Below are positions 1 to 14,521 of a stretch of DNA of 20,000 nucleotides, piece after piece (position 1 is the stretch's first letter; the number at the start of each line of letters is the position of its first letter). Below the pieces are notes generated by a model, which saw only the letters and a list, made by a program, of their open reading frames with translations, ran no database searches and was not told where the DNA came from. The position numbers and the translations under genes were made by a program. The DNA lies in the IMG/VR virus record IMGVR_UViG_3300023176_003360. One strand, 5' to 3'. The DNA comes from an uncultured virus (IMG/VR IMGVR_UViG_3300023176_003360). Its lineage: Duplodnaviria > Heunggongvirae > Uroviricota > Caudoviricetes.

Positions 1-1813
1 CTGGAGTGCTTTTGCCTTTAGGTTGTAAGTTGTCTAAGAACAAGTAGAAGAAATCGTCTTTAGTACGTTTATATGTTTCGTTACCAATAATACATAACAT
101 ACCGTATGCTTTACAACGTGCTTCAAGACGAGCCGCTACACTAACCATATCACCTAAGATATCGTAACTGTGTCTTGCACTTGATCCCATCTCACCAATA
201 AATCCTTTACCCGAGTTTACACCAAATCCCATAGCGGCTGGTGGTAAACCTTTTGCTTCTGCTTCCTTAGTATAAGCATCAACAGCGTCTAACATTTTTA
301 ATCCTACTTCAACAATAGTGTGTGCGTGATTAGGATCATCGATAGGAGCACCATGTATGTGCATACTTGCGTCACCTACATATTTGATAACCATACCGTT
401 CTTTTCAAGAATAGGTTTAGTAATACTATCCATATAGCCATTCATATAATCGCCTAAGCCTTTTACGTCATCGCCATAGTGATCACCAATTGGAGTAAAG
501 CCACGCAAGTCACTAAACATAACACTCACGTCTTTCTTAACACCCTTCTTGATTAGATCTGGATCTTCCTGTAGCATTTTAACAACTTCTGGAGAGCAGT
601 ATCCTGCGAACTGTTTTTTGATTGCTTGCTTCTCTAAAAACTCACGCACAAATTTTATACCATAAACTTGAAGTGCGATTAATACCAAAGTGATAACTGG
701 TGCTGTAACATCTACTAGTAGTTTTTCAGTTTGGAAAAGATACATCGAAGCAGGTATGGTTCCTCCAATTAGAACAACTGTTGCACCTAGTCCAACCAAC
801 ATCCATCTGCTGAGTAATATCAGCAATAATCCGCCTGCTAAGAGCCCTAAGACTTCGTATAACGCTATCTCTGCAGGTCTTTGTATGTTTGTACCATTAA
901 TCATAGTTCCAAGCATAGCGGCTTGTACAGTGCCCGCAAATTCGCCACCTGTTGCTGTTGCTACCGGATTGGCTACACCTCTTGCTGTAACATCTACAAT
1001 TACAATTTTACCTTCCAAACTGTCTGGCAAATTGGATACACTTACTGTTTCATTTTTCTGTGCCCAATCTATCCAAGTGCGGCCTTCTGAATCAACAGGA
1101 ATATAATAAAACTCTCTTGTGCGGAAATCTTTTAACATACGGAACATTGTAACACCATAAGGCGATATTTGTACGTCTATGCTTTTGGCGTTTGAATCTA
1201 CCCTTAGTGCTTCAAGTGCTAAACTTGGAAAAACAAAACCTTCAAAAGGTTGTATGATAGCAATATTTGGAATACGTCTTACTACACCATCTACTTCTGG
1301 TTCCACTCCAACAATACCACTACCAGCGGCATTGTCTTCTACTTCTGGTATGTTATTGATTAGTCCTGGATAGGCTTGTAGTATTCCTGCGTTTTCTACA
1401 CCTACCACGTTTACCTTTGGAGCCAATGGAGGATTGACTACTGTAAAGTCCGGACGTAACGGAACAACCACACGGTGTTTGCTCATTGTTTCTGCTAGAG
1501 CATCATCCTTGCCAAAACGATCTGTTTCTGGCATCATGACATTGAATACTATGGTTGATGCTTTTTTGTCTGCTATGCTTTGTATGATTTCAGCATATAA
1601 ATCTCTTGGGAAAGGATACTGTCCATACTTTTGTAATGTAGCATCATCAATTTCTGCGACAACAATATTATTTTGTACAGGTTCTTGATTAACAATTAAA
1701 CTGTCAAAATAACGAAGTTTGATGCTTTCGATAAAAGCAGGATTTTGTAAGAATGTGTAGGCTAAAAAGCCAAGTGTGATCAGTGCCCACCAAGGCGATA
1801 ATAATTTTTTCAT
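1..1813 (-). CDS. CHASE2-domain membrane-bound class III adenylate cyclase (3' end runs off the window; absent from the ORF track)
   Basis: Manual translation from ATG at 1813 gives MKKLLSPWWALITLGFLAY..., CHASE2 motifs (IDDATLQKYGQYPFPR, EVDGVVRRIP), about 3 TM helices, then cyclase motifs VMFSDLRGFT, IKYVGDA, GFGVNSG and YDILGDMVSVAARLE. The frame is open to position 2. Confidence 0.93.
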   Translation of the reverse strand, partial: MKKLLSPWWALITLGFLAYTFLQNPAFIESIKLRYFDSLIVNQEPVQNNIVVAEIDDATLQKYGQYPFPRDLYAEIIQSIADKKASTIVFNVMMPETDRFGKDDALAETMSKHRVVVPLRPDFTVVNPPLAPKVNVVGVENAGILQAYPGLINNIPEVEDNAAGSGIVGVEPEVDGVVRRIPNIAIIQPFEGFVFPSLALEALRVDSNAKSIDVQISPYGVTMFRMLKDFRTREFYYIPVDSEGRTWIDWAQKNETVSVSNLPDSLEGKIVIVDVTARGVANPVATATGGEFAGTVQAAMLGTMINGTNIQRPAEIALYEVLGLLAGGLLLILLSRWMLVGLGATVVLIGGTIPASMYLFQTEKLLVDVTAPVITLVLIALQVYGIKFVREFLEKQAIKKQFAGYCSPEVVKMLQEDPDLIKKGVKKDVSVMFSDLRGFTPIGDHYGDDVKGLGDYMNGYMDSITKPILEKNGMVIKYVGDASMHIHGAPIDDPNHAHTIVEVGLKMLDAVDAYTKEAEAKGLPPAAMGFGVNSGKGFIGEMGSSARHSYDILGDMVSVAARLEARCKAYGMLCIIGNETYKRTKDDFFYLFLDNLQPKGKSTP

Positions 1814-1825
1814 ACTGGTATTTAA

Positions 1826-1901
1826 TCAAAAAGAAAGGATAGGTGCTACAGTTCTGTCAACTTAGTGAGGGTTTTCAGAAACTGGTGTGTAGCACCTATC
1901 C
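1826..1901 (-). terminator. Long intrinsic terminator hairpin after the 633-aa gene; carries an antisense copy of that gene's RBS region
   Basis: 14-bp perfect stem GGATAGGTGCTACA (1837-1850 / 1888-1901), an inner stem, then TTTCTTTTT on the minus strand. Confidence 0.85.
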
Positions 1902-3840
1902 CTATTGTAGTTATTAGAATTTAATTACGAGTCCCGCAGAAATGGCGTTTGTATTGCCTAGATCTGTCATGCTTCTTGTTGCTCCAACTCTCCAAGTAAC
2001 TTTGTCTGTTTGTTTTTCAATACCAAGTGAAATATCATTTGTACCATCTGTGTGATGTAGTGCTGTAAAGTCAACCAGTCCTAGATCTCCACGCAATCCT
2101 ACAGTACCATAACCGTACATTTCGCTTGTAGCATCTACTGTTCTAGCACTTTGTATCGAACCTGCTTCTGTATAACCATCCACAGACCTTTTGCCACGTG
2201 TGTAACCGATCACAGGATTAACTTTTCCTGTGTCTGGTGAATACATGATTCTAGCACTGGTATCTTTACCTTTGGTTTCACTACCATTAGCAAAGTCACC
2301 GATTGTTCTTGAAACTGTGTAGTCAGTCATTGCGTGTCTAATTTCCAATGAAACATTGTTCTTTTCAACACCAAGGCCGATCATGTCAGTGTCTGCTTTT
2401 ACAGTGTCATTGTTGCCTGATAAGTCAGCACCTAATCTTATAAAACCACCTGACACTGTTACACCGTTTTCTAGTTCTTTTGAACCTCCTACTACAGCAC
2501 CTGTTGTTTTACCTGTCATGCCGTTTTTCATTTTGTGATCCATTCTTATACCTTGAATGTTGTCAAAGTCTAGATTTCTAAGTGTGCTTGAAACTGCGTC
2601 CTGTACAGTTGCAATTTGATCAACACGCCCTGTAAACGAACCCGGATCACTTACAGTTGTTACTGCAACACTGTCAGTTGATGTTCTTGCAGTTTCTACA
2701 CCGTCTGTATATGTAATAATTTCCATTGGTGTTGTAACAATAGTTGTAGTTTCTCTATCGATAGTTTGTACAGTTGTGGTTTCACTTGCATCATGTGTAG
2801 TTTGTGTTTGTGTAAGCACAGGTAAGTCTGTGTCTACAACAGGGTCACTGTATGTAATGACTGGTTCGCTCGCTCCGTCTGCCGCATCAGTTGCCGAACC
2901 TACATCTTCAAATTCACCAGTTAAGATGTCTGCACCACCGCCTGCGCCACCTTCAATTGCATCATCAGCCGCGGCAAACGCACTAGGCCCAAAGATGTAA
3001 GCATAACTTGCTGTTAAGATATCACCACTCGATACTGAACTCCAGTGCCAACTTAAACCAATAGTGTTATCGCCTGTGTTGGTTAAACTGCCGTCACCAT
3101 CTACAGTGTTTTCAGTATAACCATCTGCTTCACTGCTCCATCTACTTATACCTGCATCAACATTAGAATCTGTCGAGTACAAACCTAGTGCATAACGACT
3201 CACAGTTGCTTCTGAGAACGCAACGTTTGAATCTGGAATAGCACCGTAGCCAAGCACGTTGTCAGTTGCCGAACTATCGCCATCTGCCGCTCTAGCATCT
3301 GGATCGATAAAGCGTCCAAAGTAAACATCAGTAGCCGCTGTACCCATTGTGATTTGTGAACTAATGTCAATGTAAGGACTAGTTGCTCCTAGGCTATAGG
3401 TATTAGTAATATCAAAAATACTATCAACACCGCCCGTCCAACTTAGAGTGTTATCTCCGTTAGTAAGTCCATTACCGTCACCTGCGATAGCAGTTCCGCC
3501 ACCGTTGTTGTTTGTATAGTTTGTGCCATCAATCTTAACACTAAATCCGTCAAATGGTGATCCCGGTGTTAGATAGTCGTATGCTGTATTAAATGTTCCT
3601 GTTCCTGTGCTGTCAAACAGCAACCCTGGTGATGTATTGCCACCAGAACCAAAAGTACCTGTTGTACCATTTACACCTGCACGAACATAATCGTTTTCAA
3701 GTATGCCCATACCTGTTACGCTTGAATTCATGCTTGATGTGTCAGCAATGGCTACAGATAATGCCCCTGCCATTAGAGATACCGAGACGATGCCCGTTAT
3801 AAAAAGTTTTTTCATGTTGTACCCTCACTAAGTTGACAGA
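1853..3840. repeat. 20-bp perfect inverted repeat flanking the 633-aa gene (arms 1853-1872 and 3821-3840)
   Basis: TCTGTCAACTTAGTGAGGGT at 1853-1872 is the exact reverse complement of ACCCTCACTAAGTTGACAGA at 3821-3840. Confidence 0.97.
1914..3815 (-). CDS. Secreted/outer-membrane protein with Gly/Thr/Asp-rich passenger and C-terminal autotransporter-like beta-barrel
   Basis: Sec signal peptide (…SVAIA-D), beta-rich passenger, Thr-rich linker, amphipathic beta-strands and a terminal BAM-type motif AGLVIKF. SD GAGGG. Confidence 0.75.
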   Translation of the reverse strand: MKKLFITGIVSVSLMAGALSVAIADTSSMNSSVTGMGILENDYVRAGVNGTTGTFGSGGNTSPGLLFDSTGTGTFNTAYDYLTPGSPFDGFSVKIDGTNYTNNNGGGTAIAGDGNGLTNGDNTLSWTGGVDSIFDITNTYSLGATSPYIDISSQITMGTAATDVYFGRFIDPDARAADGDSSATDNVLGYGAIPDSNVAFSEATVSRYALGLYSTDSNVDAGISRWSSEADGYTENTVDGDGSLTNTGDNTIGLSWHWSSVSSGDILTASYAYIFGPSAFAAADDAIEGGAGGGADILTGEFEDVGSATDAADGASEPVITYSDPVVDTDLPVLTQTQTTHDASETTTVQTIDRETTTIVTTPMEIITYTDGVETARTSTDSVAVTTVSDPGSFTGRVDQIATVQDAVSSTLRNLDFDNIQGIRMDHKMKNGMTGKTTGAVVGGSKELENGVTVSGGFIRLGADLSGNNDTVKADTDMIGLGVEKNNVSLEIRHAMTDYTVSRTIGDFANGSETKGKDTSARIMYSPDTGKVNPVIGYTRGKRSVDGYTEAGSIQSARTVDATSEMYGYGTVGLRGDLGLVDFTALHHTDGTNDISLGIEKQTDKVTWRVGATRSMTDLGNTNAISAGLVIKF

Positions 3841-3894
3841 TCCTCTTCTGTCTATATTATTTAAATCTTTTTGTTGTATATTAATCAGACAGTA

Positions 3895-4326
3895 TTAATG
3901 TAGATCTCTGTTGTCCCAAGGTGCTGTTTCATAGCAACCTGCTGGTATAGTATCCTTGTAGTTTACCCAAGCACGGTATCCGCCCTCGCCATCAAATTCA
4001 ATGCCTGAACTTTCAAACGGTTGTACCCTCGGTTTACCCCAACACTTATTGTTGCTTTGCCCTGGATATCTATAACGTGGATTGTGTTTTAGGAAGTCAC
4101 GCATTTCTGCGTATTCCTTTTTCATTTCTCCAACCTTCCATTGCGAATAACAAGCACTGGCTTTTGTCCAATCAACACTATTAACATCAGATCCTGTTCT
4201 GTAATGCTGAACACAATCTTTTATCATTTTGTTGTTTAGGTTTTCTTCTGCTTGTGCTGTTGTTACCCATAACCACGACAGTGCCGCCGCGGTGAGTAAT
4301 CCGAATCCTATTATCCAATCTTTCAT
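3895..4326 (-). CDS. Hypothetical secreted protein, 143 aa, 4 Cys
   Basis: RBS AGGAGCGAG, signal peptide ending AQA, co-oriented within the cluster. Confidence 0.8.
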   Translation of the reverse strand: MKDWIIGFGLLTAAALSWLWVTTAQAEENLNNKMIKDCVQHYRTGSDVNSVDWTKASACYSQWKVGEMKKEYAEMRDFLKHNPRYRYPGQSNNKCWGKPRVQPFESSGIEFDGEGGYRAWVNYKDTIPAGCYETAPWDNRDLH

Positions 4327-9272: not shown

Positions 9273-9356
9273 TGGTGCTCTAGGAGAGATTCGAACTCTC
9301 ACGCCTTGCGGCACTGGTTCCTAAGACCAGCGTGTCTACCGTTCCACCACCAGAGC
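9273..9356 (-). tRNA. tRNA-Leu(UAG)
   Basis: Cloverleaf with CTGGT-CT-TAG-GA-ACCAG, long variable arm, GTTCGAATC and encoded CCA. Confidence 0.96.
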
Positions 9357-9357
9357 A

Positions 9358-9433
9358 TGGTAGTCCGTAGGGGAATCGAACCCCTCTTTCCGCCGTGAAA
9401 GGGCGGTGTCCTAAACCGATAGACGAACGGACC
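9358..9433 (-). tRNA. tRNA-Glu(UUC)
   Basis: CCGCC-CT-TTC-AC-GGCGG anticodon arm, GGTTCGATTCC, encoded CCA. Confidence 0.96.
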
Positions 9434-9540
9434 ATAATCTAGTGCTTTAGAACTTGACAGGTAAACCATGAATCGCTGTTCTACAGTTTTAGCACTAGAA
9501 TAATAGTTAACAGTACACTCTTTCGAGCATACTGTCAACC

Positions 9541-10062
9541 TTATTTTATCCTCAACTCCTCTATGTTTATAGGAGTAAAGTTAATTTGTTCCACACAAAC
9601 ACACCTGTGATTTGGTGTAGGACTAGGGTTAGTGTGTATGTGTCCATGCACGTTAACCATTTTGGTGTCCTTGAACCTACCTTCACCCAATGTGCTGTTG
9701 TGTACAGGAACGTGTGTTAAAAGCAATCCAAACTCTGGAAACATTCTCCACACGTCAATTTTAGCAACCAACTCGTGTTTAGCAAAGAACTTGGCATCAT
9801 CGTGGTTGCCCAATATCAAACGCTTTTGACCGTTAAGTCTTTTCCAAAGCGTCTTGAATGTGTCCTTGTTGCCAAAGAACACGTCACCCAAGTGATACAC
9901 TTTGTCGCCAGGTTTCACAACACTGTTCCAGTTGTCCACCATGGTTTCATCCATGTGTTCTACACTGTCAAACGCACGAACAGGCTTGCCATCACTATCC
10001 TTAAAGGTCAAGATATTGCTGTGCTGAAAGTGCGTGTCGCTTATTACCCATATGTTTCTCAT
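9541..10062 (-). CDS. Calcineurin-like metallophosphoesterase
   Basis: Motifs SDTH, HLGD, GNHD, LTH and HGHIH; SD GAGGTG. Confidence 0.93.
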   Translation of the reverse strand: MRNIWVISDTHFQHSNILTFKDSDGKPVRAFDSVEHMDETMVDNWNSVVKPGDKVYHLGDVFFGNKDTFKTLWKRLNGQKRLILGNHDDAKFFAKHELVAKIDVWRMFPEFGLLLTHVPVHNSTLGEGRFKDTKMVNVHGHIHTNPSPTPNHRCVCVEQINFTPINIEELRIK

Positions 10063-10080
10063 GTATCACCTCTTATAAAT

Positions 10081-10154
10081 TGGAGTGGACGACAGGAATC
10101 GAACCTGTATGGATGGATTTGCAATCCACTGCGTAACCATTCCGCCACGCCCAC
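10081..10154 (-). tRNA. tRNA-Cys(GCA)
   Basis: GTGGA-TT-GCA-AA-TCCAT, U73 discriminator, encoded CCA. Confidence 0.95.
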
Positions 10155-10247
10155 AAAGTGGAGACCTTTCTCGAGGGCGCCTCCTATTCCCGCCTGATCT
10201 TATATGTAGGGGCTCAGGCCTAACCACGTTTATACTCGTACCCTATT

Positions 10248-10321
10248 TGGCACCGGAACAAGGAATCGAACCTCAGTTTGCGGTTTTGGAGACCGTCGTG
10301 TTACCACTACACCATTCCGGC
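10248..10321 (-). tRNA. tRNA-Trp(CCA)
   Basis: ACGGT-CT-CCA-AA-ACCGC, G73, encoded CCA. Confidence 0.94.
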
Positions 10322-10323
10322 TT

Positions 10324-10363
10324 AAAAACAAAAAACCCCCGTAAGCATTTCTACTTCGGGGGT
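10324..10363 (-). terminator. Attenuator terminator immediately upstream of tRNA-Trp
   Basis: ACCCCCGAAGTAGAAATGCTTACGGGGGT followed by TTTTTGTTTTT on the minus strand. Confidence 0.9.
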
Positions 10364-10388
10364 CTAAATCTTGTTGTTGAAACAATTC

Positions 10389-10457
10389 CTACAAGATACC
10401 CCCTGGTGGTTCATAGCACCAAATACAAATGTCATTATGTAGAGTCTGTGTATTCAT
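10389..10457 (-). CDS. Putative attenuator leader peptide MNTQTLHNDICIWCYEPPGGIL (22 aa)
   Basis: SD AAGGA, ATG 10457 to TAG 10389, codons TGT-ATT-TGG-TGC. The 3' end overlaps the 5' arm of an antiterminator. Confidence 0.8.
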   Translation of the reverse strand: MNTQTLHNDICIWCYEPPGGIL

Positions 10458-10480
10458 TGTTTCGCTTTCCTTATTAACTA

Positions 10481-10514
10481 TATTTATAATACTATCTGTT
10501 TGTGGTCTTGTCAA
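10481..10514 (-). promoter_or_regulatory. Overlapping sigma70-like and T4-late-like promoters for the leader/tRNA unit
   Basis: TTGACA (10514-10509)-17 nt-TATTAT (10491-10486), overlapping TATAAATA (10488-10481). Confidence 0.75.
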
Positions 10515-10827
10515 CCAGAAAAGACTTAATTTTTTCAAAATTTTTCGCAGTCTGTTCTTTACCTGACTGCCAGTTTGTTTTTTGAAACTGTTTAATGTCT
10601 TCCCATTCGTTTGTTGCCCAGTTACCTATTGCTTGAGGTCTTTCGTTTAACCAAGTCCCAAACGAATTTAGTTTTGTTTGTAACTGTATGCTTACAGGTT
10701 TCTTTTCTGGTAACACTGTATTTGTTTCATTAGCCACAGCATTATTATTCAATACAATACCTATTAGTACACCTATCACTAGAATAGTAATAATATATAC
10801 TGCTTTTTTCATTTGCTTTTTTATCAT
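10492..10827 (-). CDS. Hypothetical membrane-anchored/secreted protein
   Basis: Start moved to ATG 10827 (SD AAGGAAAGG) because the longer ORF overlaps tRNA-Arg. Hydrophobic N-terminal helix. Confidence 0.75.
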   Translation of the reverse strand: MIKKQMKKAVYIITILVIGVLIGIVLNNNAVANETNTVLPEKKPVSIQLQTKLNSFGTWLNERPQAIGNWATNEWEDIKQFQKTNWQSGKEQTAKNFEKIKSFLVDKTTNR

Positions 10828-10848
10828 GCCTTTCCTTTTGTTATAATT

Positions 10849-10925
10849 TGGCCTGCCTGGGAGGACTCGAACCACCGACCTTCAGTTCCGCAAACTGACG
10901 TTCTATCCAACTGAACTACAGGCAG
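10849..10925 (-). tRNA. tRNA-Arg(GCG)
   Basis: TCAGT-TT-GCG-GA-ACTGA, A20 in the D-loop, G73, encoded CCA. Confidence 0.93.
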
Positions 10926-10933
10926 ATAGTTAT

Positions 10934-10962
10934 AATATATATGGTTTTACCAGAATTGTCAA
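10934..10962 (-). promoter_or_regulatory. Sigma70-like promoter for tRNA-Arg
   Basis: TTGACA-17 nt-TATATT ending 8 nt upstream of the tRNA. Confidence 0.7.
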
Positions 10963-10980
10963 TTGGAATATTTTACCAAT

Positions 10981-11145
10981 TTAGAAGTCGCACTTTACAT
11001 TTGCTTTTGGAGTAACCTGATCTCTAATTGGTTTCTCTGTAGAGATTCCGTCCACTTCAGCACCCGGCTCTACTTCACAATTTCGTATTTTAAATGTGCA
11101 AGATTGTAAAGCCAAAATGGCTAATATGATTAAAACGTGTCGCAT
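10981..11145 (-). CDS. Small lipoprotein, 54 aa (absent from the ORF track)
   Basis: MRHVLIILAILALQSCTFKIRNCEVEPGAEVDGISTEKPIRDQVTPKANVKCDF with lipobox LQSC; preceded by TATAAATA-N5-ATG. Confidence 0.78.
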   Translation of the reverse strand: MRHVLIILAILALQSCTFKIRNCEVEPGAEVDGISTEKPIRDQVTPKANVKCDF

Positions 11146-11167
11146 GGTTTTATTTATAGATTGAAAC

Positions 11168-11740
11168 TTATCTAATAAGTCTGTATATATCTTTTGTGCT
11201 GGTCTTAATCCAATCCGGATTTTGTTTTGGATTAAAATAAAAATTGTGTTTTCCTAGAACACAATCTCGTTTGGTAAGAACACTGTAATTAAATTTTTGG
11301 TGTCCTAGTGTGTCATAACCCAGTGGTCTGTTTTTACAGCAATCTTCCCAAGTTTGTCCAAATATAAAAATGTTGTCAATCTTGGCAAAATCAACAACCC
11401 TGTTTACTTCAAAAGGATAGCACATCGCATATTGTTGTTTACTGCTTTTCCAGGACAATATGCTTTTGTGTGTATGCCTATTTTCTTTATTGTTTTGTTG
11501 TTTGTGCTTTAGTACACTAAAATATTCCGCACCAAGCACACCTTTAGAATTGGTGTACCAATGATTGTCTAAATCATATTCAGATACAGGGCAATCATAA
11601 TTGGCAAGAAAAACATCAGTAATTAAACTGTTACTTTCAATATATTTTATTATATTATTGTAGCATCTACGATATGGATTTCCTGGTATCCAACTAAATG
11701 CTGTTTTCCATGGATCAATTATGATCGCAATAGATTTCAT
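11168..11740 (-). CDS. Hypothetical protein, possibly isochorismatase/cysteine-hydrolase-like fold
   Basis: 190-aa ORF. IAIIIDPW and IFIFGQTWEDCC loosely resemble the Asp and Cys motifs of that fold; the function call is weak. Confidence 0.6.
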   Translation of the reverse strand: MKSIAIIIDPWKTAFSWIPGNPYRRCYNNIIKYIESNSLITDVFLANYDCPVSEYDLDNHWYTNSKGVLGAEYFSVLKHKQQNNKENRHTHKSILSWKSSKQQYAMCYPFEVNRVVDFAKIDNIFIFGQTWEDCCKNRPLGYDTLGHQKFNYSVLTKRDCVLGKHNFYFNPKQNPDWIKTSTKDIYRLIR

Positions 11741-11953
11741 TTAAAAATATTTGTTTAAAACTTCAAGTTGATCGTGATATTCAGCAATAATTTTTAATTC
11801 TTTTTCAATTGCTTCTAGGATATCTGGATGTTCGCCAACACCTGCGGCATTTGCTAGATACACTTCAACGTTCATTGCGTGTTTAGCAATATGTCCTTTA
11901 GCGTGTTCTTTTATCGCTTCGATCATGTTTTCTCTGTTATATGGTCCAGCCAT
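11741..11953 (-). CDS. Hypothetical small helical phage protein
   Basis: 70-aa ORF with SD AAAGG; helical hairpin pattern around GVGEHPDI. Confidence 0.8.
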   Translation of the reverse strand: MAGPYNRENMIEAIKEHAKGHIAKHAMNVEVYLANAAGVGEHPDILEAIEKELKIIAEYHDQLEVLNKYF

Positions 11954-11971
11954 TGTTTTACCTTTCTAAAT

Positions 11972-12045
11972 TGGTGCCCAGTGACAGAATCGAACTGCCA
12001 ATTGATGATTACAAATCAACTGTTATACCGTTTAACTAACCGGGC
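11972..12045 (-). tRNA. tRNA-Thr(UGU)
   Basis: GTTGA-TT-TGT-AA-TCATC (one U.U mismatch), GTTCGATTC, encoded CCA. Confidence 0.93.
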
Positions 12046-13248: not shown

Positions 13249-13256
13249 ATCAATAT

Positions 13257-13964
13257 TTATACCGTTTTTGGAAATAGCATATCAGTACAAAAACGCTCTA
13301 CATCCGCTTCATTAAGTCCTAATGACTTCATTACCTTGGGTGTATGTGGGTTTTGTTGCTGATTATGACAGTACCAATTCTGCCCTTCTAGCACTGCATT
13401 GCGTTCACCTTTATTGTTGTGATCACCAATACATTCTAGGTAAACTTTTAGATTGGTTGTTGCTAGTTGTACAATGGTTTTGGCTTCTTCAATGTCTGTT
13501 ACATTACCTGCCGCGATCATGCTACCACTGAATATGTTCAATGCCCATTCAGGCAATTCACGTTTTTTGCTAGGAACATACTCACTTACAGTATCTTCAA
13601 ACCATTCTACCATATTGTGATGTACACCATCGCCGTTGGGCCCACCTAGTGGACTATAGTCATGAAAGGCGCCGGTCATTTTGTTCTTACCTGCAATTAC
13701 ATCAAATCCGTATATTGGTCCGTTGTTGTGTAACTGTGGAAAGACACATACGTGCATCATCCAAAGACCTTTTGTAGTACGGGCATCCACCACATCAATG
13801 TGAGCCCTTCGTACACTATCATTAGACCAAACACGATTAATCCAACCGTTATCGGGTTGGTTAAAATAGTCAAGGCCTTCTTCTTGAGTTTCTGTAGCAT
13901 ATTCATCAAACATATCAAGAATGTCGTTTTGACATTCTATTAGTTTATCCCAAATTTCACTCAC
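13257..13964 (-). CDS. pcyX: Ferredoxin-dependent bilin reductase, most likely PcyX type
   Basis: FDBR motifs RRAHIDV, MHVCVFP…PIYGFDVI, FHDYSP, RELPEWA-IFS and QQQNPHT; overlaps the end of the heme oxygenase gene. Confidence 0.85.
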   Translation of the reverse strand: MSEIWDKLIECQNDILDMFDEYATETQEEGLDYFNQPDNGWINRVWSNDSVRRAHIDVVDARTTKGLWMMHVCVFPQLHNNGPIYGFDVIAGKNKMTGAFHDYSPLGGPNGDGVHHNMVEWFEDTVSEYVPSKKRELPEWALNIFSGSMIAAGNVTDIEEAKTIVQLATTNLKVYLECIGDHNNKGERNAVLEGQNWYCHNQQQNPHTPKVMKSLGLNEADVERFCTDMLFPKTV

Positions 13965-14499: not shown

Positions 14500-14521
14500 A
14501 CTGGTATTTACCGCTCTATAA

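Follow-up and report, generated by a model that had tools for sequence, protein, structure and literature searches.

An autotransporter-like gene inserted in a phage curli operon

The window (the whole 20-kb stretch of DNA that was analysed) is a fragment of an uncultured marine T4-like myophage of the pelagimyophage/Melnitz type. On one strand, genes for a 143-aa secreted protein, a 633-aa autotransporter-like protein and a nucleotidyl cyclase follow each other in that order, with a conserved hairpin (hp3) between the last two (Table 1). The cyclase showed matches to Pfam CHASE2 (4.5e-36) and Guanylate_cyc (1.7e-16) and to phrog_35576 (1e-152), and was 41 and 33% identical to the cyclases of Melnitz and HTVC008M, respectively. 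A phage curli (T8SS)-FecR-cyclase cassette has been described for pelagimyophages and Melnitz (PMC7029224, PMC9004378), and its order, csgF-csgG-curlin repeat-FecR-curlin repeat-cyclase, is shared by the window. However, the 143-aa gene, the 633-aa gene and hp3 are all missing from the Melnitz and HTVC008M operons and were therefore counted as an inserted cassette within this published operon. The RNA feature described below is not mentioned in the portions of PMC7029224 and PMC9004378 considered here, and the word 'hairpin' does not occur in PMC7029224. No match to the 633-aa protein was found by tblastn against 50,697 GenBank phage records, which leaves the cassette without a known cultured phage carrier. 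Contig searches with the single 633-aa protein returned zero relatives, and those with a protein alignment yielded nothing but remote cellular proteins homologous over the N-terminal domain (28 loci, 28–62% identity), which were uninformative on the RNA question.

Table 1. Features of the autotransporter-cyclase region in window coordinates.
Feature	Position	Strand	Remark
CHASE2/class III nucleotidyl cyclase gene	2..1813	-	extends past window edge; Pfam and PHROG matches
P3, TAAATA motif 5 nt before cyclase ATG	1819..1824	-	motif match; predicted start on A of AUG
U-rich tract TTTCTTTTT directly after hp3	1828..1836	-	terminator-like look in this window only
hp3, conserved hairpin with 14–16 bp stem and 37-nt loop displaying anti-RBS	1835..1903	-	folding; stems of 19 loci
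Anti-RBS arm, exact complement of 3840-3821	1853..1872	-	CCCTC in apical loop part
633-aa secreted autotransporter-like protein gene	1914..3815	-	fold of predicted model
RBS arm, 20 nt including SD GAGGG (3826-3822)	3821..3840	-	ends 5 nt short of ATG at 3815
hp5, small hairpin GACAGA/TCTGTC of predicted 5' UTR	3835..3852	-	3' arm overlaps first 6 nt of RBS arm
P1, T4-type late-promoter-like TAAATA motif upstream of autotransporter gene	3858..3863	-	motif match
143-aa secreted protein gene	3895..4326	-	cassette member

The 633-aa protein is laid out as a signal peptide, a beta-rich passenger, a helix (residues 397-413) and a 12-strand C-terminal barrel, with F as its final residue. In the AF2 model, in which barrel blocks mostly reached pLDDT values of 75–87, DSSP assigned this same helix, followed by 12 strands up to residue 631. 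A Foldseek search with the model retrieved the NalP translocator (1uyn/1uyo, E 1e-8, TM(target) 0.62–0.68), then EstA, EspP, Hbp and BrkA. Neither Pfam nor PHROG yielded a match, and a search of PDB sequences with a profile of the protein gave 0 matches. Signal peptide, passenger, linker helix and 12-strand barrel, as predicted, are together those of a type Va autotransporter; since no Pfam family matched, this assignment is by fold alone, on a model with a mean pLDDT of 66.

In a correction to the original prediction, the host of the element is a T4-like phage and not a bacterium, and the element is placed amid late-promoter-like TAAATA motifs. These motifs resemble the late-promoter consensus TATAAAT(A) given in parts of PMC9004378 and PMC3014915, and the promoters named here are putative, being assigned by motif. 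Late-promoter prediction is reported to fail in pelagimyophages in the section of PMC7029224 considered. A TAAATA motif was located 35–49 nt ahead of the autotransporter ATG in 20/20 loci, and AAATA was invariant in all 18 aligned upstream regions of the gene. The predicted transcription starts use an exact spacing from TAAATA that we take to apply in this phage. Downstream of P1, the small 5' hairpin hp5 was present as predicted; its first base, G3852, is the sixth base past the P1 TAAATA, and relatives have an equivalent at the same place. The arrangement TAAATA-N4-5-ATG was found at the cyclase start in 18/20 loci and also in Melnitz and HTVC008M; with its predicted start on the A of AUG, P3 is a candidate promoter for a leaderless late cyclase mRNA. 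A sigma-70 scan gave, on the plus strand (3833-3860), an 11/12 match with TTGACA inside the repeat; total matches were below the shuffle mean.

Complementarity between the ribosome-binding site and the hp3 loop

An anti-SD sequence complementary to the SD region of the autotransporter gene (20/20 nt exact) lies downstream of the same gene's coding region, 1.95 kb from the RBS. The two arms were the sole 100%-complementary long inverted repeat among the best 25 longest pairs listed for the 20-kb window, a search with the 20-mer allowing up to 3 mismatches returned these two sites only, and 0/200 dinucleotide shuffles of the window reproduced such a match. These repeat and shuffle searches, together with inspection of the minus strand, confirmed the previously claimed exact 20-nt complement that includes GAGGG and ends 5 nt from the AUG. 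The complement had been described as lying 'largely' in the hairpin loop; its location in the loop was borne out but the qualifier was not, the 20-mer falling wholly inside the loop of a 14-bp stem. The core stem pairs 1901-1888 with 1850-1837 and extends to 1903/1835 via a G.U and an A-U pair, and the 37-nt loop (1887-1851) holds the entire 20-mer. The hairpin had a minimum free energy (MFE) of -29.7 kcal/mol (z -5.5), with 0/200 shuffles equally stable, and the duplex of 5' UTR and hp3 in the window was calculated at -42 kcal/mol. A 20-bp helix within a closed 37-nt loop would be sterically strained unless the stem opens. When other targets of the loop were sought in the window (11-mer, at most 2 mismatches), 5 matches were obtained versus 5.3 expected, and a second target was thus not indicated.

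The label 'terminator hairpin', given to hp3 in the original prediction, did not hold as a conserved trait. A U-rich tail (at least 6 T of 9) followed the stem in 1/20 loci, so that the label suits this window alone; the combination of a GC-rich hairpin with a U-tract was not kept in relatives, and the 37-nt loop exceeds the terminator definition of the terminator scan. Elsewhere hp3 is mostly an intergenic element, always 20–25 nt upstream of the cyclase ATG, even where other genes intervene. While the window has no TAAATA motif between the autotransporter gene and hp3, such a motif was found 3–10 nt before the hp3 arm in 12/20 loci, where it would start a transcript at the hairpin base. Because conserved TAAATA motifs flank hp3, the cyclase mRNA may begin with this hairpin as its 5' leader, which would allow action in trans alongside a role in cis as 3' trailer of the autotransporter mRNA.

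Rfam at gathering score recovered tRNAs only, with no family on the RBS/hp3 element. A match to STnc280 over 3794-3878 in a permissive Rfam scan was attributed to chance (23.8 bits versus a threshold of 80), and a short ORF within hp3, present in locus L004, was dropped since it was not kept in L056.

Conservation and covariation in relatives

Conservation was surveyed in 68 metagenomic loci in which the homolog was complete and the upstream sequence long enough, using the 45 nt before the ATG as query. In 24 of these (19 distinct), an exact RBS/loop complement of 13–20 nt was kept while its sequence differed, 39–682 nt beyond the stop codon and always in a hairpin loop; the remaining 44 had complements of 7–11 nt at scattered positions. 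The check for loop/RBS complementarity in diverged homologs, proposed with the original prediction, was therefore positive, with compensatory changes in the conserved pairs. Among 66 further IMG/VR loci, such a match was found in 2, and a mismatched 18-nt version in three (L120, L121 and L124); in the rest the longest match was 7–12 nt, plus one A/T run of 14. Pairing was retained across intervening genes, with hp3 at +118, +156, about +360 and +682 nt; complementarity holds even where the hairpin is displaced to 2.4–2.7 kb by one or two additional genes.

By lineage, the paired sequences fell into about six groups. Duplexes between cognate 5' UTR and hp3 ranged from -32 to -62 kcal/mol in 20/20 loci and were in every case lower than all of 100 shuffles; pairs across groups were far weaker than cognate ones. 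In several groups, complementarity runs from the loop into the hp3 3' arm and beyond, up to a duplex of about 31 bp (-62 to -74 kcal/mol) in L024. When the whole mRNA of about 2 kb was folded, RBS core and anti-RBS core were paired with each other in the MFE structure of 5/5 loci (20/20, 16/16, 15/16, 17/17 and 23/26 positions paired).

In a formal covariation count on 14 aligned full-length regions (12 long-range pairs, 157 cells), 96.8% of the cells were paired; 0/500 shuffles scored as high and slid controls reached 37–44%. Compensatory double changes were found in 5/12 pairs (11 cells; 1/500 and 0/500 shuffles), and the RBS/loop partners were still exactly complementary in carrier lineages whose proteins are only 48–75% identical. 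The complementary core always spans the autotransporter SD, around which identity drops sharply while the flanks diverge. Embedded non-Watson-Crick positions of the long-range duplex comprised 4 G.U, 0 A.C and 5 other mismatches, so that G.U support for this duplex itself is thin. The hp3 stems across 19 loci differ in sequence yet pair, with 231 Watson-Crick, 28 G.U, 0 A.C and 1 other combination, counted by per-locus arm matching with a scoring that favoured G.U at helix ends. The excess of G.U over A.C points to selection on the sense-strand RNA, not on a DNA palindrome. Per-locus matching superseded RNAalifold on a MAFFT alignment of hp3, whose stems have diverged too far for sequence alignment, so that no more than 6 pairs were recovered.

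Apparent covariation would also result if recombination kept the two DNA copies evolving in concert. Recombination is intense in T4-like phages. The arms might be inverted repeats that serve at the DNA level, as an inversion switch or as homology for phage recombination, and that owe their identity to recombination and not to selection on RNA. The whole gene is indeed flanked by perfect inverted repeats, in a mosaic cassette region with loose contig ends at 3808 and 3864 and a swapped 5' UTR in L060, where the anti-RBS is present and the replaced 5' UTR does not match it. On the other hand, none of the 19 distinct loci was inverted, hp3 being intact and in one orientation throughout, and no strand-change joint was seen in two DNA and two RNA runs, as judged from assembled contigs, in which rare forms are lost. 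The 23 ORFs of the window included no member of a recombinase or invertase family. Moreover, the 3' arm is a loop sequence closed by a stem that accepts G.U but not A.C, the mismatches adjacent to the core include 4 G.U on the sense strand and no A.C, and the identity ends abruptly near the SD. We consider DNA-level repeats very unlikely; the original prediction had already ranked an invertible segment as the lesser alternative, and inversion found no support in these loci or in the contigs of the four runs.

A further alternative is that a mobile 'late promoter + leader' module was duplicated in inverted orientation at the edge of the cassette, giving rise to hp3 and leaving the complementarity as a functionless residue. 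Consistent with such an origin, the 5' UTR and the 5' half of hp3 look alike, each having TAAATA-N5 and then an arm of the GAGGGC type, and the cassette is inserted relative to Melnitz and HTVC008M. Residual similarity would decay, however, whereas the exact complement was kept between diverged lineages with double changes in its pairs; the left half of the hp3 loop, in contrast, has diverged locally and no longer pairs with the anti-RBS. A mere by-product therefore appears highly improbable.

When the proteins of 92 rows were placed in a tree, the 20 carriers formed a basal grade of a 65-row clade, which suggests an old origin of the RBS/loop pairing and several subsequent losses. Its absence from 45 of the 65 rows indicates that the trait is dispensable.

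A probable anti-SD pairing in the late operon

The analysis shows a complementarity that is conserved through compensatory changes, an RNA-level, G.U-tolerant nature of hp3 and a long-range duplex that is thermodynamically preferred. Together these probably reflect an RNA-RNA anti-SD pairing, of the kind known from icaR, that is conserved within one clade of marine T4-like phages and caps autotransporter translation. The original inference that RBS-loop pairing caps translation was thereby partly supported: the compensatory changes substantiate a conserved pairing at the RNA level, and transcript ends, action in cis or in trans, translational repression and RNase cleavage are inferred. The autotransporter mRNA would start at P1, probably a late promoter, and carry a terminal 5' hairpin and, after it, an exposed SD. 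The hairpin hp3, two kilobases further downstream, would offer its loop anti-SD as a 14–20 nt exact complement and, once transcribed, pair with the RBS by this loop. The source of hp3 could be the autotransporter transcript itself or, in those relatives whose hp3 has a late-promoter motif at the base, the start of the cyclase transcript. By growing into the hp3 3' arm and the 5' hairpin, the duplex could reach about 30 bp in many relatives. Binding of 30S subunits would be blocked, and a long duplex would be open to cutting by double-strand RNase, so that synthesis of the outer-membrane autotransporter would be capped in late infection.

One contig from an RNA library covers 1300-2133 across hp3; it may be DNA and need not be a single transcript. 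Contig breaks at 3837 were rejected as transcript ends, since they occurred in DNA and RNA runs alike and correspond to branches of the strain graph. Cover gaps in X14 were without meaning.

The same RNA pairing could have a different main target, hp3 and the downstream cyclase instead of the autotransporter. A free 5' UTR would then invade the hp3 loop and 3' arm and open the hairpin, opposing termination in the window and remodelling the cyclase leader in relatives, and cyclase expression would hinge on a ribosome-free autotransporter RBS. The constant distance of hp3 to the cyclase ATG despite intervening genes, the extension of loop complementarity into the 3' arm in several groups, the U-tract in the window and the TAAATA motifs that would make hp3 a leader are in line with such a role. 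Merely opening hp3 would, however, not need a core that always covers the autotransporter SD. The cyclase start lies outside hp3 and has its own TAAATA-N4-5-ATG, the U-tract is confined to one locus, and co-transcriptional invasion must win a very brief time window. Taken together, control chiefly of the cyclase seems distinctly unlikely.

Anti-SD capping of the autotransporter could also be one side of a two-faced late-operon RNA. Here hp3 would end the autotransporter transcript as its trailer and, in many relatives, also serve as a capless 5' leader of the cyclase transcript; kissing of its loop with the SD in the autotransporter 5' UTR, followed by strand displacement to about 30 bp, would constitute a self-contained mRNA-mRNA toggle that shuts off the surface protein, unfolds hp3 and thereby governs in which order or proportion autotransporter and cyclase are made during infection. 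We regard this extension as doubtful. If true, it would be the first covariation-supported long-range (2–2.7 kb) mRNA switch in a DNA phage.

Pairing of the start of a bacterial mRNA with its far end has been studied experimentally in a handful of cases, for which phylogenetic support is rare. The about six versions of the RBS/loop duplex, spanning 2–2.7 kb in abundant, uncultured phages of marine bacteria, amount to a natural compensatory-mutation experiment and make the RBS/hp3 pair a clean, portable model for distant anti-SD action in vivo. With them, the unexplained curli-cyclase cassette of phages gains an RNA level, and the TAAATA motifs, 5'-terminal hairpins and possibly leaderless messages hint at how late expression is organised in T4-like phages of streamlined hosts.

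This type of anti-SD pairing is already known from icaR of Staphylococcus aureus. In the portion of PMC3868564 considered, pairing of the icaR 3' UTR with the SD blocks initiation and feeds RNase III. In both cases, an anti-SD downstream of the coding region is complementary to the SD region of the same gene, and both genes are tied to cell-surface or biofilm biology. Whereas icaR uses a 7-nt UCCCCUG core, according to the same portion, the phage gene has a 14–20 nt complement in a conserved hairpin loop 2.0–2.7 kb off, sometimes across other genes, and its intergenic hairpin may also head the next transcript. Sequences resembling an anti-SD (aSD) also repress through the RBS from hundreds of nt downstream in Bacillus subtilis, as stated in the part of PMC12697547 considered. 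There, as in the phage, a pyrimidine-rich distal aSD-like sequence pairs with the RBS; such sequences are, however, described in that part as generally depleted from B. subtilis genes, whereas the phage sequence is conserved, extended and co-evolving with the RBS.

In hok/Sok fold-back inhibition and in the long-distance RBS pairings of the RNA phage MS2, a 5' start region pairs with a distant segment of the same RNA, and translation depends on folding kinetics or processing. The phage element would share the long-range pairing at a translation start but has no toxin and no antisense partner gene, and belongs to a DNA phage with a multi-promoter late operon. A hok-type fold-back inhibitory element, which by definition combines a toxin ORF, a cis antisense RNA and 3' processing that relieves the block, was not recognised, the gene encoding the autotransporter-like protein.

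A parallel within the phage lineage is provided by the T4 genes e, soc, 49 and I-TevI, for which RBS-sequestering hairpins that enclose a late promoter are described in the part of PMC3014915 considered. Lineage, an occluded SD and TATAAATA-type late promoters whose transcript 5' ends decide folding are common to these genes and the phage gene. In T4 e-type genes, as described there, late transcripts lack the occluding strand, which is located immediately upstream, while in the phage it lies 2 kb downstream and would be present on every transcript that reaches it. An occluding strand upstream of the late promoter was not found in the window, TAAATA being upstream of both arms. Two distant relatives, L012 and L016, showed exactly the T4 e-type local layout, at the gene following the autotransporter.

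RBS complement in the loop of a downstream hairpin

Directly upstream of the gene for a 633-aa protein, a GAGGG-containing 20-mer was found whose exact reverse complement lies in a hairpin (hp3) between this gene and a CHASE2 cyclase gene. Among the 25 longest pairs listed by a repeat search, the two arms were the sole long inverted repeat with 100% complementarity. A pattern search with 3 mismatches allowed returned these two sites only and none in 200 shuffles (0/200), thus recovering the perfect 20-nt antisense copy of the RBS region claimed in the original prediction. Display of this copy by a hairpin was likewise found, as the 37-nt loop of hp3 (-29.7 kcal/mol, z -5.5) holds it entirely; the proposed small 5'-UTR hairpin was also present. 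TTTCTTTTT comes directly after hp3.

Coordinates of features in the window
Feature	Position	Strand	Remark
Autotransporter gene (633 aa)	3815-1914	minus	
CHASE2 cyclase gene	1813-2	minus	
RBS arm	3840-3821	minus	5 nt short of start codon ATG 3815
Anti-RBS arm	1872-1853	minus	exact reverse complement of RBS arm
hp3 core stem	1901-1888 with 1850-1837	minus	14 bp
5' hairpin GACAGA/TCTGTC	3852-3835	minus	
Sigma-70-like match	3833-3860	plus	11/12
Six tRNA genes (Leu, Glu, Cys, Trp, Arg, Thr)	9273-12045		small ORFs in between
TAAATA	1819-1824	minus	exactly 5 nt before cyclase ATG
TAAATA	11151-11156	minus	exactly 5 nt before further ATG at about 11143
TAAATA	13254-13259	minus	exactly 5 nt before ATG of 385-aa ORF
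TAAATA	14505-14510	minus	exactly 5 nt before heme oxygenase ATG; 14-mer same as cyclase's

The 633-aa protein had no match in Pfam, PHROG or PDB sequences. In its structure model (pLDDT 66 on average, 75-87 in most barrel blocks), a helix precedes a barrel of 12 strands, in agreement with the barrel gene proposed earlier. The best barrel matches were autotransporter translocators, with NalP first (E 1e-8, TM 0.62-0.68), followed by EstA, EspP, Hbp, and BrkA. The modelled product is a predicted autotransporter-like surface protein of a phage. On the plus strand, the TTGACA of the repeat, with TATTAT 16 nt on, forms a sigma-70-like match directed away from the gene; in total, sigma-70-like matches in the region were below the shuffle mean.

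Conservation across homologous loci

Relatives of the 633-aa protein were numerous in metagenomes. From 80 fetched metagenome and 80 fetched IMG/VR loci, the longest exact reverse complement of the 45 nt before the ATG was sought across the entire locus wherever the gene was complete. Loop/RBS complementarity proved to be kept in diverged homologs: 24 of 68 metagenome loci (window counted) had an exact complement of 13-20 nt, representing 19 distinct sequence pairs in about six groups, with sequences differing between lineages. In all 24 carrier loci, the match covered the SD on its 5' side and lay in a hairpin loop on its 3' side, 39-682 nt past the stop. The other 44 loci had 7-11 nt at most, at scattered positions. 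Of the 66 IMG/VR loci, two repeated versions already known, and three (L120, L121, L124) had an 18-nt variant containing one G.U pair and one mismatch.

Cognate duplexes had energies of -32 to -62 kcal/mol in 20/20 loci, every one below all 100 shuffles, and cross-group duplexes were much weaker. Between loci L014 and L077, a T/C change adjoining GAGGG in the RBS arm was matched by an A/G change in the loop arm. Covariation was counted in an alignment of 14 full-length regions (12 long-range pairs, 157 cells). Of these cells, 96.8% were paired, as compared to 37-44% when partners were slid by 1-3 columns, a comparison that is favoured by derivation of the counted structure from the same 14 sequences; none of 500 shuffles reached as high. 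Changes on both sides, counts that are independent of this derivation, occurred in 5 of 12 pairs and in 11 cells (1/500 and 0/500 shuffles, respectively). Concerted evolution of the two DNA copies is a formal alternative.

The complement was kept despite intervening genes. In L054, a 41-codon ORF separates the autotransporter gene from hp3 (at +156), in L004, L020, L056, and L066 a small barrel-like gene intervenes (hp3 at about +360), and L077 and L079 contain further intervening sequence (hp3 at +682). Across loci, the distance from hp3 to the cyclase ATG downstream of it stayed constant at 20-25 nt. The L054 ORF, at a locus that retains the complement, encodes a small hydrophobic peptide.

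In a protein tree of 92 rows (quick method, midpoint root), the 20 carriers made up the basal grade within a clade of 65 rows, and at least 6-7 changes were required. This distribution is best read as one probable old gain of the trait followed by several losses; its absence from most of the clade indicated that it is dispensable. L060 and L056 encode near-identical proteins and have identical hp3, while the 5' UTR of L060 is unrelated (SD GGAGGAG). L060 is a recent recombinant, with an anti-RBS that has no partner.

Level of action and proposed mechanism

In hp3 stems of 19 loci, sequences diverged between lineages yet stayed paired, with 231 Watson-Crick, 28 G.U, 0 A.C, and 1 other pair; scoring favoured G.U at helix ends, and about 20 G.U were internal by reading of the count. 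The G was always in the 5' arm. Because the opposite strand would have C.A mismatches at these positions, it was concluded that hp3 is selected as sense-strand RNA. In the long-range duplex, a strict rule gave 4 G.U, 0 A.C, and 5 other embedded mismatches, which is the right direction with small numbers. When the whole mRNA of about 2 kb was folded, the cores of RBS and anti-RBS paired with each other in 5/5 loci tried.

These G.U patterns and folds also bear on a DNA-level explanation, in which the arms would be the inverted repeats of an invertible segment. All 19 distinct loci had the same orientation with hp3 intact, and no strand-change joint was seen in contigs of two DNA and two RNA runs, in which rare forms would be missed. 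The window contains no recombinase gene, arm identity ends sharply around the SD, and the left half of the loop, the local potential partner, has diverged. Since all these observations favour RNA, inversion, already ranked as less likely in the original prediction, is considered very improbable.

The best-supported reading is that RBS/loop pairing represents an anti-SD interaction of the kind known from Staphylococcus aureus icaR, where 5'/3' pairing occurs at the SD. The hp3 loop offers CCCUC inside 14-20 nt complementary to the autotransporter RBS. Pairing would keep the 30S subunit off and build a long duplex, as suggested by analogy with the available text on icaR (PMC3868564) and on long-range anti-SD effects in Bacillus subtilis (PMC12697547). 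In several groups, complementarity runs on beyond the loop, taking in the 3' arm of hp3 and the UTR's 5' hairpin (about 31 bp in L024), an arrangement of the type in which a kissing contact leads on to strand displacement. That the main target is instead hp3 and the cyclase, with pairing opening the hairpin or opposing termination, is unlikely.

For the anti-SD reading, action of hp3 in cis on its own mRNA, as originally proposed, would be the natural version in the window, because no promoter motif precedes hp3 and a U-tract follows it. The terminator hairpin originally predicted was only partly borne out: only in the window is the stem followed by a U-rich tail (6 or more T in 9 nt), with 5 T in L037, L047, and L051 and 1-4 in the rest. 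In most relatives, hp3 is an intergenic element and not simply a terminator. In relatives where TAAATA precedes hp3, the hairpin may form the leader of the cyclase mRNA and work in trans. Where transcripts begin and end, whether hp3 acts in cis or in trans, and which way the effect goes are all inferred.

An invariant TAAATA motif recurs in the region; it makes up the core of the late promoter TATAAAT(A) of the T4 type (PMC9004378 and PMC3014915, available text), and the motif sits at the -10 position according to PMC7892883. In 20/20 loci it was found upstream of the autotransporter ATG, at a distance of 35-49 nt, and in 12/20 it precedes the 5' arm of hp3 by 3-10 nt; the window, with a one-base variant at the latter place, is not one of these 12. 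It also occurred 4-5 nt before the cyclase ATG in 18/20 loci and in phages Melnitz and HTVC008M, which share the window's spacing. Transcription starts about six bases after late-promoter motifs. If this spacing holds, the autotransporter mRNA would start exactly at its 5' hairpin (G3852), many relatives would have a second transcript starting at the base of hp3, and the cyclase message could be leaderless. If TAAATA is a late promoter, leaderless late mRNAs would extend to the 385-aa ORF, heme oxygenase, and the ATG at about 11143. These assignments are hypotheses, because late-promoter prediction failed in pelagimyophages according to the available text of PMC7029224.

Gene setting and related layouts

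By its genes, the window was identified as DNA of a T4-like myophage of marine origin. Besides the six tRNA genes, it carries genes for speD, heme oxygenase, bilin reductase, Hsp20, ClpS, and peroxiredoxin (PHROG matches). Near the tRNA genes lie speD, heme oxygenase with ferredoxin-dependent bilin reductase, ClpS, and Hsp20; this region is a typical auxiliary-gene island of such phages. The operon order, csgF-csgG-curlin repeat-FecR-curlin repeat-...-CHASE2 cyclase, is the same in Methylophilales phage Melnitz and Pelagibacter phage HTVC008M, whose cyclases share 41% (over 99% of length) and 33% identity with that of the window, and the csgF-csgG-curlin-FecR-cyclase cassette is already described in the available text of PMC7029224 and PMC9004378. 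Since in both phages the second curlin-repeat gene is directly followed by the cyclase, the genes for a 143-aa secreted protein and the 633-aa protein, together with hp3, which occupy this position in the window, constitute an inserted cassette. Contigs of co-occurring strains have the 5' UTR in common, but their sequences part at 3808, shortly after the gene start, or at 3864, immediately before the promoter motif. With loose ends on either side, the autotransporter leader looks like a recombination joint between cassettes.

No description of the RBS/loop feature was found in the literature searched, including the available text of the cassette papers (PMC7029224, PMC9004378), and Rfam contained no family for the RBS/hp3 element. 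Pairing at the SD and long-range anti-SD effects are documented; new are the distance of 2-2.7 kb across genes, the presentation of the anti-RBS by the loop of a conserved hairpin, the occurrence in a phage late operon where promoter motifs flank the element, and the strength of the covariation evidence.

Local RBS-sequestering hairpins are described for T4 genes e, soc, 49, and I-TevI (PMC3014915, available text). In distant relatives L012 and L016, the first 60 nt past the stop of the homolog contain a hairpin with anti-SD GCCCTCA in its 5' arm, GATAAATAC in its loop, and a 3' arm, TGAGGGC, that serves as SD for the following gene, whose ATG comes 8 nt later: a textbook gene-e-type layout with a late-promoter motif in the loop. 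Within the first 80 nt past the stop in L046, the SD of the next gene (GGAGGGCAA) has its pairing partner about 40 nt further on, in the coding region of that same gene, which represents a further mode of SD occlusion in these phages. GTGAGGGCG recurs in the 5'-terminal hairpin loop of L004, L020, L056, L066, L012, L018, and L126, where it forms an additional SD-like element ahead of the real SD; at these loci, the 5' arm of hp3 begins with a similar GAGGGC.
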